This document shows, piece by piece, positions 58,727 through 63,193 of a stretch of 64,000 nucleotides of DNA. Origin of the DNA: an uncultured Anaerolineaceae bacterium (GTDB taxonomy: Bacteria; Chloroflexota; Anaerolineae; Anaerolineales; E44-bin32). Positions within the stretch are counted from its first letter, which is position 1; every line of letters begins with the position of its first letter. The stretch is taken from NCBI GenBank assembly GCA_964528155.1, contig CAZGRL010000007.1:8613-72612 (forward strand), in the 5' to 3' direction. Under the pieces are notes generated by a model, which saw only the letters and a program-made list of their open reading frames with translations, searched no databases and had not been told where the DNA came from. The position numbers and the translations under genes were made by a program.

Positions 58727-60241
58727 TCAATCGGATTCCACGTCTCCGCCGCCTCCCTCGGTCTCCTGTTCACCGGGAAGTTGGCCGGCTTCGTCCGCCG
58801 GGGGCTCCTCCGATCCTTCAACTTCGGCTTCGGCCTCCGAAGGCTCGGCCGCTTCTTCGCCCGACGGCTCTAGTCCACCAGCCATCTCGACGGTCTCGGC
58901 CGGCTGCTCCTTCGGTTCGCGGGTTTCCGCCGGAGATTCGGCTTGCTCAGCCTCGAGCGCGGCGTCGAAATCCTCGAACTCGGGCTCGGGTGGCTGCTCC
59001 GACTCCTGAGCCGAATCACTCGGAGGCGTCGCTTCTCCCACCGCCGACTGCCAATCCATCTCGGCGTACTCCGGCGAATCGACCTTCTTGAGGCTCAAAC
59101 CAATGCGCCTCCGTTCGCGCTCGACCTTGGTGACACGCAAGGTCAAGACCTGACCCTCTTGGACAACCTCACGCGGGTGCTCGATCCGGCGATCGGACAG
59201 TTCAGAGATATGGATCAAGCCCTCGATGTCGAATTCCTGAATGTCGGACAGTCTTGCGAAGGCCCCAAATTTCGTCAACTTGGTGATCTTGCCTTCGATC
59301 AGCTGCCCTTCCTTCACCCAATCCACGATCCGATCCCATGGATCGCTTTCCAGCTCGCGCAGTGAGAGGCTGATCCGCTTGCGCTCAGGATCGACGTTCA
59401 AGACCTTGACCTTGACTTCCTGACCGACCTCGACCAGCTCGCGCGGATGATCTATTCGCTTCCAGGACATCTCCGACAGGTGGACCAGGCCATCCGCCCC
59501 GCCGATATCCACGAACGCCCCAAAGTCCGCCAGGCTGATCACATGCCCGGTGCGGGTTTCTCCGGGCTTGAGCTCGGCGATCAGACGGTCTTTGAGGGCT
59601 CTCCTGGCCTCTCGGGCGGCCGCCCTCTCCGAGATGATCAGGCGGTTGCGTCGACGGTCGACTTCGATCACCTTGGCCACGATGGGTTCGCCGACCATCT
59701 TCCCCCATCGCCGGTCGGGCGTGTCTCCCTCGGCACGTCGCCGTCGCGATAGGCTCACCTGTGAGGCAGGGACAAACCCTCTCAGGCGGCCGAGCTTCAC
59801 AATCAGGCCGCCCTTGTTGTAGCCAGAGACTTCGCCTTCGAAGGCCTCTTGCGACTCGAGCAGACCCTCGACATCCTGCCAGTCCTTCTCTTCTTCGGCC
59901 CTTACCAGGGAAAGAAGCGTCGTCACATCGCCCCCGGTTCCGGAGCGAACGACGTAGACGGTCACTTCTTTGCCAACTTTAAGCTCGGCGCGTTCTTCTT
60001 CTGAAAGCCCCTCGATCTCCCGGGCGGGGATCAGGCCTTCAGACTTGGCGCCGATATCTACCAGAACATCGCTCCCCGAGATACGGGCGATCGTCCCGGT
60101 GCGGATCTCCCCACGTCGTGGGGTTTCAAGTTCATAGGCCTCCCCTTCAAGGAAGGCATCCATCGGATGTGACTCAGGCTCGGCGGACTGTCCGTCCATC
60201 GATTCTGAACCCTGTCCGATGGTCTCATCATTGTCAACCAT
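58727..60241 (-). CDS. rpsA: 30S ribosomal protein S1 (four S1 domains) with a long acidic C-terminal tail
   Basis: VDIGAKSEG, YNKGGL, GFVPASQ, FGAFVDIGGADGLVHLSEMSW, EGLIHISEL; promoter TTGTCA-17-TATAAT at 60302-60274. Confidence 0.93.
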   Translation of the reverse strand: MVDNDETIGQGSESMDGQSAEPESHPMDAFLEGEAYELETPRRGEIRTGTIARISGSDVLVDIGAKSEGLIPAREIEGLSEEERAELKVGKEVTVYVVRSGTGGDVTTLLSLVRAEEEKDWQDVEGLLESQEAFEGEVSGYNKGGLIVKLGRLRGFVPASQVSLSRRRRAEGDTPDRRWGKMVGEPIVAKVIEVDRRRNRLIISERAAAREARRALKDRLIAELKPGETRTGHVISLADFGAFVDIGGADGLVHLSEMSWKRIDHPRELVEVGQEVKVKVLNVDPERKRISLSLRELESDPWDRIVDWVKEGQLIEGKITKLTKFGAFARLSDIQEFDIEGLIHISELSDRRIEHPREVVQEGQVLTLRVTKVERERRRIGLSLKKVDSPEYAEMDWQSAVGEATPPSDSAQESEQPPEPEFEDFDAALEAEQAESPAETREPKEQPAETVEMAGGLEPSGEEAAEPSEAEAEVEGSEEPPADEAGQLPGEQETEGGGGDVESD

Positions 60242-60640
60242 CCAACGAACCTTTTGCACGAGTTGTCTGGGGCATTATAAGGGCGAACGGGTGTCTTGAC
60301 AACCTTCCGCCCTTTAGTGAAATGAATCTCGGGTTGTCGATGCGCACGACCATCCAGAAATCTCGCCGCGTGCTTGGAGAAGGAATTCATGAGGTCTGAA
60401 TTCAATTCCGCCCTTCGGCGGGCGATCGCGGCCGGTTCCTGAAGCCGTCAAGCCGAGCCAAGATGCTTCCGGCTGAAGGATTCGCCTGACCCAGGGCTGC
60501 ATTGGCCACGGGCCACAGGCATCGGTCACGGCTGCAATACATGCCAGACGACGGCTCGCTCGCCCATCCAGACCTCCCCACAGCCCCGCGCCCGTGCAGG
60601 CGGGATGGTGCGGTATAATCCCGCGCGGAGGTCAGATTCC

Positions 60641-62704
60641 GTGCCCGTTGTTTACCCATTCACCGCCCTTGTCGGTCAAGAACGCATGTGTCGTGCGCTG
60701 ATTCTGAACGCGATCAACCCGCGTATCGGGGGCGTGTTGATTCGCGGAGAGCGTGGCACGGCGAAGTCGACGGCCGCCCGAGGGCTGGCAGCCTTGCTGC
60801 CTGAGGTCAAAGTCGTCGCCGACTGCCGTTTTGGCTGCGACCCCAACCAGCCGACGACCTGGTGCACAGAGTGCCGCGAGCGGGCTGCCCGCAACGAGGT
60901 CCTTCCCGTGCAGATGCGCCGGACCTCGTTCGTCGATCTGCCGGTATCGGCTACCGAGGATCGAGTGGTGGGCACGCTGGACATCGAGCGTGCAATCAAG
61001 GAAGGGGAACGGCATTTCGAGCCCGGAGTCCTGGCCTCAGCCAATCGCGGTCTGCTCTATATCGATGAAGTCAACCTGTTGGATGATCACGTCGTCGATC
61101 TGTTGCTGGATTCAGCCGCGCTGGGAATGAACTTTGTGGAACGCGAAGGGATCTCCTTCAGCCACCCAGCCCGCTACATCCTGGTCGGCACGATGAACCC
61201 CGAGGAAGGCGATCTTCGGCCTCAGTTGCTCGACCGGTTCGCCCTGTCGGTCGAAATTCACGGACTGCAGGATCCGCGCGACCGGGTTGCCATCATGGAG
61301 CGAAATCTGGCATTTGAAGCCGACCCGGTCGGGTTCCGCGAGCATTGGCTGGGCAGGGAGGAGGCGCTCTCGGGCGAAATCTCCCGCGCCCGCGAATCGG
61401 TCGATCGAGTGACGTACTCCAAGCGCGACCTGCTTTCGATCGCTGCGTTGACTTCTTCCCTCCAGGTCGACGGCCACCGGGCCGACCTTGTGATCCTGAA
61501 GGCCGCACGGGCGCATGCAGCCTACGAAGGCCGCAGCGCCATCACCGAACTGGATATCGCCCTGGCGGCCGAGCTCGCCCTGCCGCACCGCCTACGCCGT
61601 GGGCCCTTCCAGCAGGTCGACGTCAATCTGGAAGATCTTCAGGCCCGCATCGAACAGGTTCAGTCGCAGGTGAACGGAGGCGAGAGCGAGGAAGACACGC
61701 CCTCGGAAGACGAGCCGGAGGCGAAAAAAAAAAGACGCCAGCAGGGCGTAGCCCGGGAGGTTTCTGAAGACAAGAAGGAAGTCGGCCAGGCCGAGCCTAC
61801 TCTGCAGACCCCGCCCGAATCGCTCGAAGCCCGCTGGTGGGAAGGGGGGGACAAGGTCAAGACCGGTGAATCCTTCGCCCCTCGTCGGATTGGCGGCTCG
61901 CTCGATCGCCTCACGCGGCACACCCCAGGGCGAAGGACGCTCTCCAGGACAACGCGCAAACGCGGTCGCTACATCATGGCCAGGCCGGCGACCGGCAAGG
62001 TCGACGACATCGCCTTTGACGCGACCCTGCGCGCTGCCGCGCCGCACCAGGTGGAGCGGGCCGAGCAACGGGAGAAGGTCGCCTTCGCCATCGAGCCCTC
62101 CGATCTTCAACGAAAGGTTCGCGTCCGCCGGTCGGCGAATCTGATCCTGTTCGTGGTCGACGCCTCATGGTCGATGGCGGTCGCCGAGCGAATGTCGGCG
62201 ACGAAAGGGGCAATCCTGTCGCTCCTCACCGACGCTTATCAGCGGCGTGATCGTGTCGGATTGGTTGTGTTTCAAAAGGATCGTGCGCTATTGATCTTGC
62301 CTCCGACAAACTCGGTCCAGCTTGCCCAACGCGCGCTGGCCGACATACCGGTGGGTGGTAAGACGCCTCTATCCGCCGGTCTGTCCCTCGCACTCGAAGT
62401 CTTTCTCCAAGAAAAGACGACCCACCCGGACGTCCTACCGCTGATGCTGCTCCTGACCGACGGCGCCGGAAATGTATCCACCGGCAACCTCCCGCCTTTG
62501 GAGGAATCGCTCCTCGTCGCCGATCAGATCCGTGAGGCGGAGATTCGATCCGTGGTCATCAACATGGAGCATGCCGCCTTCGATCAGGGTCTGGCCAAGC
62601 GACTCGCCGAGAGGCTGAACGCGCCGTGCTACACGCTTCAGGAACTGAAAGCGGAGAGCCTGTACCGCACTGTTCGCCAGGAGATCGACACGGGCGCGGC
62701 CTGA
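60641..62704 (+). CDS. ChlD/BchD-like chelatase subunit (ChlI-type AAA+ domain, acidic linker, vWA domain)
   Basis: YPFTALVGQE, GERGTAKST, DEVNLLDDHVVDLLLD, GTMNPEEG, LDRF, FVVDASWSM (MIDAS), GGKTPLSAG, LLTDG; start GTG 60641 (GGAGG; TATAAT at 60614). Confidence 0.9.
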   Translation: MPVVYPFTALVGQERMCRALILNAINPRIGGVLIRGERGTAKSTAARGLAALLPEVKVVADCRFGCDPNQPTTWCTECRERAARNEVLPVQMRRTSFVDLPVSATEDRVVGTLDIERAIKEGERHFEPGVLASANRGLLYIDEVNLLDDHVVDLLLDSAALGMNFVEREGISFSHPARYILVGTMNPEEGDLRPQLLDRFALSVEIHGLQDPRDRVAIMERNLAFEADPVGFREHWLGREEALSGEISRARESVDRVTYSKRDLLSIAALTSSLQVDGHRADLVILKAARAHAAYEGRSAITELDIALAAELALPHRLRRGPFQQVDVNLEDLQARIEQVQSQVNGGESEEDTPSEDEPEAKKKRRQQGVAREVSEDKKEVGQAEPTLQTPPESLEARWWEGGDKVKTGESFAPRRIGGSLDRLTRHTPGRRTLSRTTRKRGRYIMARPATGKVDDIAFDATLRAAAPHQVERAEQREKVAFAIEPSDLQRKVRVRRSANLILFVVDASWSMAVAERMSATKGAILSLLTDAYQRRDRVGLVVFQKDRALLILPPTNSVQLAQRALADIPVGGKTPLSAGLSLALEVFLQEKTTHPDVLPLMLLLTDGAGNVSTGNLPPLEESLLVADQIREAEIRSVVINMEHAAFDQGLAKRLAERLNAPCYTLQELKAESLYRTVRQEIDTGAA
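61724..61733 (+). promoter_or_regulatory. A10 homopolymer, candidate recoding (slippery) site
   Basis: GCG AAA AAA AAA AGA at the AAA+/vWA linker; stops follow within 15 codons in both alternative frames. Confidence 0.65.
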
Positions 62705-62788
62705 GATCGCCCGGACCTGACCCCAGTCAAGAACAATGAGCTAATCCGAAAGTCCGTGGGATTGGGTCCTACGACGGCAGGAGGCGTC

Positions 62789-63193
62789 ATGGCACAACCG
62801 CTTTCTTTCCAGGCAGAGTTGGATGATTCAGTCGAAGTTGCCGAGAAGCGTGTTACGCAGGAATTGCGAGCCGAGGGCTTCGGCGTTCTCACCAGGATCG
62901 ACGTCAAGACAACCTTCACGGAGAAGCTCGGCGAGGATTTCCGGCCGTACGTGATTCTAGGCGCGTGCAATCCTACATTGGCTCACCGCGCCCTGTCAGG
63001 CAACCCTGAAATCGGACTGCTCTTGCCGTGCAACGTCGTCGTCGAGGAGCACGGCCAGGGAAGTCGCGTTTCCATCATCAATCCCGAGACGATGATGAGC
63101 GTGGGCGATCTTTCCACGGATGCACTTGCGTGCGACGTCGCCTCGGAGGCGCGCGCCAAGTTGGAGCGGGTGACGGCAGCGCTCAAGAGGTAA
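62789..63193 (+). CDS. DUF302 domain protein
   Basis: EGFGVLTRIDV, PYVILGACNP, IGLLLPCNVVV; AGGAGG Shine-Dalgarno. Confidence 0.88.
   Translation: MAQPLSFQAELDDSVEVAEKRVTQELRAEGFGVLTRIDVKTTFTEKLGEDFRPYVILGACNPTLAHRALSGNPEIGLLLPCNVVVEEHGQGSRVSIINPETMMSVGDLSTDALACDVASEARAKLERVTAALKR

Follow-up and report, generated by a model that had tools for sequence, protein, structure and literature searches.

A conserved poly-A run in a chlD-like gene of an uncultured Anaerolineales bacterium as a probable recoding site for a long and a short subunit

Our analysis supports a model in which a run of ten adenines (A10) at positions 61724-61733 of a 64,000-nucleotide stretch of DNA from an uncultured Anaerolineaceae bacterium (GCA_964528155.1, contig CAZGRL010000007.1; the whole stretch is called the window here) serves as a recoding site through which one chlD-like gene gives both a long and a short subunit. 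Judging from sequence comparisons, we consider it likely that the run is such a conserved site. In this model, standard transcription and translation would yield a 687-aa ChlD-like protein composed of a ChlI-type AAA+ motor, an acidic linker and a VWA domain with a metal ion-dependent adhesion site (MIDAS). A substantial minority of expression events would slip by one base on A10, through stuttering of RNA polymerase that leaves A11 or A9 transcripts, through -1 tandem slippage of the ribosome on A_AAA_AAA, or through both. The shifted frames would end 5-11 codons further on and give ChlI-sized proteins of 369-375 aa with the full AAA+ motor and no VWA domain, and the long and short forms, having an identical motor domain, would presumably join into one complex in the manner of ChlI and ChlD. 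Production of the short form by the window's gene, co-assembly of both forms and the share of each slippage mechanism are the parts of the model that we infer. The polarity of the arrangement, with the long product in frame and the short one made by slippage, is that of dnaX and copA and is the mirror image of that in the published frameshifted chlD genes (fs-chlD); both polarities occur among close relatives, on the same run.

The source organism belongs to the order Anaerolineales of the Chloroflexota and comes from salt-marsh metagenomes, its genome being a metagenome-assembled genome (MAG) of 285 contigs that is 93% complete. Over its 64 kb the window has a GC content of 0.62 and holds a single homopolymer of at least 8 bases, namely A10; the runners-up are of 7 bases (C7 at 28167 and G7 at 61844). 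The chlD-like gene (60641..62704, + strand), identified from its open reading frame (ORF), its translation and matches to TIGR02442 and TIGR02031, is open from a GTG at 60641 to a TGA at 62702-62704 and encodes the 687-aa product of standard decoding. A candidate Shine-Dalgarno sequence read from the letters, GGAGG (60627..60631, +), lies 9 nt 5' of the GTG, and an alternative ATG start further upstream, at 60605, would give a protein of 699 aa (12 residues more). The ChlI-type AAA+ module (60653..61660, +), recognized by TIGR02030, Pfam Mg_chelatase, AAA_5 and AAA_lid_2 and by Walker A (GERGTAKS) and Walker B (LLYIDEVN) motifs that are intact in the translation, is complete 5' of the run. The VWA (integrin-I-like) domain (62144..62599, +; Pfam VWA and VWA_2), whose translation has an intact MIDAS (DASWS...T...D), lies 3' of the run and is part of the long product only. 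Between the two extends an acidic, Pro/Lys-rich linker (61661..62143, +) that holds the run, and across orthologues this linker varies widely while the run stays constant. Because the AAA+ module is complete before the run, a product ending just past it would be a whole ChlI-like motor without the VWA domain.

The A10 run (+ strand) begins on codon position 1 (phase 0; GCG AAA AAA AAA AGA, encoding A-K-K-K-R) and includes an in-phase A_AAA_AAA heptamer. A +1 slip or a transcript with one A fewer (A9) would lead to a TAG at 61749..61751 (+), 15 nt past the run, and to a 369-aa product ending in KKKDASRA, and a -1 ribosomal slip or an extra A (A11) would lead to a TGA at 61765..61767 (+), 31 nt past the run, and to a 375-aa product ending in KKKKTPAGRSPGGF. 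Stops as near as these in both of the other frames occur at just 0.9% of the positions in the gene. In these respects the window is as a preliminary description, made from the sequence alone, had presented it: the sole 10-A run, its place in the linker after the AAA+ domain (TIGR02030 at residues 17-352 before it, VWA at 514-665 after it) and the lengths and stops of the three products all hold. The same description had warned that the length of the homopolymer might be an assembly error, and this concern did not stand. Contigs assembled separately from four sequencing runs (X1-X4), which represent different salt-marsh samples, span A10 with 0 mismatches and 0 gaps at depth 2-6, and G001, the sister species and sole other member of the genus, carries an A10 that is likewise in frame and has kept the +1 TAG. 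An assembly error is thus very unlikely, given that the four per-run assemblies and the sister species concur, and was rejected as an explanation. The genes of the source organism (G000) and G001 differ at 54% of four-fold degenerate sites, corresponding to ~1 substitution per site after correction.

In most relatives from the same order, slippage on this run is a necessity. Nearly all of the 40 related genomes that we searched contain an orthologue, and in 26 of the 30 best loci, all from the same family or order, the gene is split into adjacent N- and C-halves with the C-half shifted to the -1 frame in every case. The overlap between the frames spans 16-79 nt (16-22 nt in the smallest cases) and always includes an A7-A10 run, and the 0-frame stop follows the run at a median distance of 7 nt. 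Since this sole overlap of the frames contains the run, slippage there is obligatory if the frameshifted orthologues are to make ChlD, and the split arrangement in these Anaerolineales is the published fs-chlD. The window's gene bears a trace of the same organization in that its +1-frame TAG is homologous to the 0-frame TAG of the frameshifted orthologues; the motif around it, AGGGCGTAGCC, is common to L018, L019, L027, L055, L070 and L074, where TAG is the 0-frame stop.

Conservation of the run extends well beyond the frameshifted genes. A first comparison covered 109 loci; two in-frame genes from long-read MAGs with extra frame breaks (L043 and L045) were excluded from the statistics as possible homopolymer errors. 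The Anaerolineae clade contributes 86 orthologues, of which 69 are frameshifted by -1, 1 by +1 and 16 in frame, and 85 of the 86 have an A7-A10 run without interruption; the 24 distant orthologues (from Dehalococcoidia, archaea and others) all lack the run and are in frame. When the class Anaerolineae was sampled more widely, the fused in-frame gene was found in 102 of 401 genomes (about a quarter), and 69 of the 89 such genes that were retrieved have kept a run of at least A7 (43 A9, 19 A7, 5 A10 and 2 A8), the remainder having either A5-A6 (6 genes) or no run (14 genes). Overall, ~150 orthologues share a conserved A7-A10 run at the same junction. The run occurs in codon phases 0, 1 and 2 and encodes KKK, KKN or EKKT, and AAG never interrupts it in the orthologues, though AAA accounts for just 40-51% of the Lys codons elsewhere in these genes. 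A run that is kept in all three phases, with differing peptides, points to selection on the nucleotides and not on the protein.

The stops that would terminate the short products are conserved along with the run. Of 82 genes that are in frame and carry the run, 95% have a -1-frame stop no more than 30 nt beyond it, compared with 22% at control positions in the same genes (p = 6e-15), and 61% have a +1-frame stop equally close, compared with 29% at the controls. In several in-frame orthologues the run leads straight into the stop, as A9-TGA. The proposal of the preliminary description that one chlD-like gene may give ChlD- and ChlI-sized products thus finds strong comparative support in the conserved run, in the obligatory -1 shift of relatives and in the off-frame stops that have been kept, and the conservation of the run among orthologues, where it had looked for a check, bore it out, with no AAG codons mixed into the run.

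As regards the mechanism of slippage, the A7 runs are informative. They lie in phase 2, which is the canonical A_AAA_AAA phase, in 6/6 frameshifted genes and in 16/20 in-frame genes with A7, indicating a ribosomal contribution. Runs of A9-A10 in any phase are compatible with either mechanism. In Escherichia coli reporters, chlD cassettes shifted frame at 10% with A7, 40% with A9 and 63% with A11 (PMC3711429).

Several observations weigh against a two-product gene. One family, f59, with 12 genomes, has lost both the run and the Lys patch; its loci in the class Anaerolineae (L145, L148-L153, L156 and L158-L161) carry an in-frame chlD-like gene with another linker, in which TPLKGHQADP.PLSYIRQADMPVSIG is conserved, and we found no alternative in-phase slippery heptamer in these run-less genes. 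The family can serve as a natural control without the run. The prediction that loss of the run should be offset by a separate, close chlI failed in all 12 f59 genomes, in which the fused gene was the only chlI-like gene at E <= 1e-30. Having lost the run without possessing a separate chlI, f59 indicates that the short product is not required everywhere. In the window's gene itself, no significant stimulatory RNA structure was found 3' of the run (fold of 61715-61830, z = -0.8 vs shuffles), nor was a conserved one; the sequence 3' of the run is not conserved across the class, and neither a stimulatory hairpin nor an internal Shine-Dalgarno sequence was found. Moreover, the in-frame state of this gene is a recent return, so that local conservation, such as that of the +1 TAG, could be partly inherited and not selected. 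Finally, a stand-alone ChlI-like AAA+ gene of 396 aa lies on another contig of the source genome (G000:C14:46619-47809; L002:1393-2583), shares 39-42% identity with the N-half of the window's gene and might in principle act as the small subunit.

This paralogue bears directly on the preliminary description, which had seen none of the genes chlI, cobN and chlH in the window and had regarded a separate chlI elsewhere as speaking against recoding. The window does lack all three genes, and a search of the genome also gave no CobN/ChlH; a separate ChlI-like gene formally exists, but its presence does not discriminate between the readings and is no argument against recoding, because the same paralogue accompanies an obligatorily frameshifted chlD in nearly every relative of the order. 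Elsewhere in the class it was found in only 5 of the 13 run-bearing in-frame genomes tested. No large ORF able to encode a VWA partner adjoins the paralogue, and the ORF downstream of it, which we take to be a type-2 isopentenyl diphosphate (IPP) isomerase (fni)-like gene, was judged by eye from its first residues, with no family-library scan.

The RNA evidence must be read with similar caution, as the source organism is present in no RNA run and the evidence derives from frameshifted relatives only, in assembled contigs of mixed communities and not in reads, which makes variant fractions rough. In a wastewater metatranscriptome (X14), an orthologue like that of L107, with A9 (L107:7051-7115), is represented by A9 contigs of depth 75-90 and by an otherwise identical A10 contig of depth 13.1 (~14%); the DNA sequenced from that sample (X38) does not include this organism, so that a mixture of strains may also lie behind the pair. 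For an organism like that of L110 (L110:7097-7105), the X14 RNA contigs break off precisely at the final A of the run or begin precisely at its first A, and in the X38 DNA a contig spans the A9 unbroken at depth 16.6. Such breaks at the edges of the run are what a de Bruijn graph produces when A9 occurs beside A10 or a longer run. The A9/A10 heterogeneity of RNA in these relatives is therefore suggestive of transcriptional slippage, short of proof.

We considered whether the window's run might be an evolutionary relic, that is, whether the gene is an ordinary fused chlD with a leftover run, the slip products of which are unselected noise, with the paralogue serving as the small subunit. The genus is nested in an otherwise -1-frameshifted clade, which makes the fusion recent, the genome does have a ChlI-like paralogue, and family f59 shows that a fused gene without the run is viable. 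Nevertheless, we regard this explanation as unlikely. The run, the rare AGA codon and both near off-frame stops have outlasted ~1 synonymous substitution per site between G000 and G001, and the 69 of 89 fused genes that retain the run come from more than 15 families, with a -1 stop within 30 nt in 95% of the run-bearing ones. A mutable homopolymer without a function should decay, and retention of the run on this scale accordingly speaks against a relic, as does the fact that the paralogue is equally present where chlD is obligatorily frameshifted.

A second possibility is phase variation at the DNA level, whereby slipped-strand mispairing would alter the length of the run and cells would toggle, in a heritable way, between a state with the long form and one with the short form only. 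A9-A10 tracts are mutable in DNA, and along the tree both A9 versus A10 and the frame state switch back and forth, the frame state at least 8 times. However, the contigs from four samples all have A10 with no branch at the run, and in the one sample that offers both DNA and RNA of a relative, the DNA contig runs through without a branch (depth 16.6), whereas the RNA contigs break at the run. A pure on/off switch would also leave unexplained why the frameshifted state is fixed in most species of the order, and we find phase variation quite improbable. That A10 is a miscall, as the fragmentation of the MAG into 285 contigs might suggest, or that it just encodes a needed Lys patch, as charged ChlD linkers might, is very improbable indeed, given four independent per-run assemblies and a second species with the same length and frame on the one hand, and on the other a run that occurs in all three codon phases, encodes differing residues and never contains AAG.

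The recoding model also accommodates the history of the gene. In trees of 109 and 198 sequences, in-frame lineages with the run branch off at the base of the Anaerolineae clade, and the -1 genes group in a single nested clade with 78 members, which corresponds to the order Anaerolineales; inside it there have been several returns to the in-frame state, the window's genus among them. Well-supported branches force at least 8 changes of frame state overall. A frame state that flips while the run persists is what would be expected if either genomic state yields both products. The in-frame long form is thus common in the class Anaerolineae and not peculiar to the window's gene, and it is probably ancestral there. 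This is the opposite of the proposal that fs-chlD is ancestral, at least in the class Anaerolineae, where the frameshifted state is nested and the in-frame state with the run is basal. One orthologue, L094 from the uncultured Chloroflexia MAG MFD00032.bin.2.147, is the only one with its C-half in the +1 frame; this occurs at an A9, nested among A10 genes that are frameshifted by -1, and reflects either a genuine third polarity or a homopolymer error in long reads. Taking a step further, we propose tentatively, and with almost as much chance of being right as of being wrong, that the tract gives two products independently of frame, that it was dnaX-like in the ancestor, and that it flipped once at the base of the Anaerolineales and several times back, in the service of an I/D motor that operates without ChlH/CobN. 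The idea of a frame-independent tract held up when examined on the in-frame gene of the window. Because slippage on A9-A10 would give mixed products whichever frame the genome has, the ratio between the ChlI-like and the ChlD-like product would be reversed by a small indel with neither being lost.

A known parallel to this layout is dnaX, in which a long AAA+ protein is encoded in frame, slippage on an A-rich run that follows the motor domains meets an off-frame stop at once and the truncated subunit co-assembles with the long one. Two slippage mechanisms are documented for its tau and gamma products, a -1 ribosomal frameshift at A_AAA_AAG in E. coli and transcriptional slippage on A9 in Thermus thermophilus (PMC5009743). 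The window's gene resembles dnaX in that a full-length ORF has the slippery run in its 0 frame, followed by a conserved, near off-frame stop, and the A9-TGA orthologues have the same layout. In contrast to dnaX, it has no stimulatory hairpin or internal Shine-Dalgarno sequence, and as the genes are unrelated the comparison is one of analogy and not of membership.

The closer comparison is with fs-chlD itself, known as the 'magnesium chelatase' recoding cluster (Antonov et al. 2013, PMC3711429; Kuznetsov et al. 2022, PMC9227772). Here the gene family is the same, as are the position of the run at the AAA+/VWA junction, the A7-A11 run with A_AAA_AAR, the proposed derivation of ChlI-sized and ChlD-sized subunits from one gene, the lineage, and the genomic setting, in which a separate chlI is present and a large subunit or pathway is absent (PMC9227772). 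The difference is that the C-half of the window's gene is in frame, such that a frameshift is not needed for the long product and a slip gives the short one, and in the fs-chlD papers (PMC3711429, PMC9227772) unframeshifted chlD genes are treated as conventional genes without a signal. Poly-A recoding in chlD, including that in this bacterial group, is accordingly already known, as the preliminary description had stated (PMC3711429, PMC9227772), and what seems to be new is the in-frame arrangement that keeps both the run and the off-frame stop. The in-frame run-bearing chlD, its spread across the class and its basal position are not described in those two papers (PMC3711429, PMC9227772); Antonov 2020 may mention it.

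The matches of the window's gene to protein families bear on its likely function. Pfam and NCBIfam matches identify the gene type as a ChlI-like AAA+ N-half joined to a VWA C-half. TIGR02442 (putative cobaltochelatase) is matched end to end with 770 bits, under its curated cut-off of 779, TIGR02031 (BchD-ChlD) with 427 bits, under a cut-off of 500, and TIGR02030 (BchI-ChlI), the whole model of which aligns to residues 17-352, with 417 bits, under a cut-off of 467; in Pfam, AAA_lid_2 at residues 278-338 and Mg_chelatase/AAA_5 lie 5' of the run and VWA at 514-665 lies 3' of it. The protein is like the medium subunits of class I chelatases (ChlD, BchD and CobT) in having an AAA+ module, an acidic/proline-rich linker and a VWA domain with MIDAS in the same order, and unlike them in falling below all equivalog cut-offs and in having a ChlI-like N-half with intact Walker motifs. 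No CobN/ChlH (PF02514) was found in the source genome, which is 93% complete, or in 40 of 41 relatives, and CbiC/CobH (PF02570), the sole marker of a corrin/chlorophyll pathway that was looked for, was absent from the source genome as well. Because these searches for CobN/ChlH and CbiC were negative, a role as cobaltochelatase is unsupported, and the gene probably encodes neither a Mg nor a Co chelatase as these are conventionally understood and should not be classed as either. In agreement with this, Anaerolineaceae have been listed as having fs-chlD and a separate chlI without the large subunit or a B12/chlorophyll pathway, and the role of a ChlI/ChlD pair without the large subunit has been described as not known (PMC9227772).

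The surroundings of the gene yielded no lead on its function. Upstream lies the divergent gene for ribosomal protein S1 (rpsA, 58727-60259, - strand), which is the only conserved neighbour (26 of 56 related loci), and downstream lies a gene for a DUF302 protein (62756-63193, + strand). Neither the DUF302 gene nor an RNase_H_2/TPR gene is consistently linked to the chlD-like gene, which looks monocistronic, and the operon context, including the neighbours of the paralogue, gave no functional clue. Within the AAA+ module, soon after Walker A, the window's gene has a Cys-rich, zinc-ribbon-like insertion (CRFGCDPNQPTTWCTEC) at 60818-60877, and a CAYGC...CPDC sequence in the ChlI-like paralogue (P0002) resembles it. 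The G7 run at 61844-61850 also falls within the chlD-like gene, in the conserved WWEGGDKV motif (TGG TGG GAA GGG GGG GAC), and is probably a codon effect.

Placing the slippery run inside an intact ORF has consequences for how such genes are found. Recoding of chlD is known only where the annotation breaks into two adjacent ORFs; the window's gene looks like an intact ORF and would therefore be missed by annotation pipelines and frameshift finders. If the reading proposed here is confirmed, two-product chlD genes far outnumber the catalogued fs-chlD set, and other fused AAA+/VWA genes may hide similar sites of the dnaX type. The in-frame, -1 and +1 states that occur on one conserved run provide a natural series for studying how the ratio of slipped products evolves. 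The presence of a conserved ChlI/ChlD-type motor in anaerobes that lack both the large chelatase subunit and a corrin or chlorophyll pathway raises the question of its substrate. Finally, if the tract indeed gives two products independently of frame, lineages could tune the stoichiometry of their ChlI-like and ChlD-like subunits by small indels.

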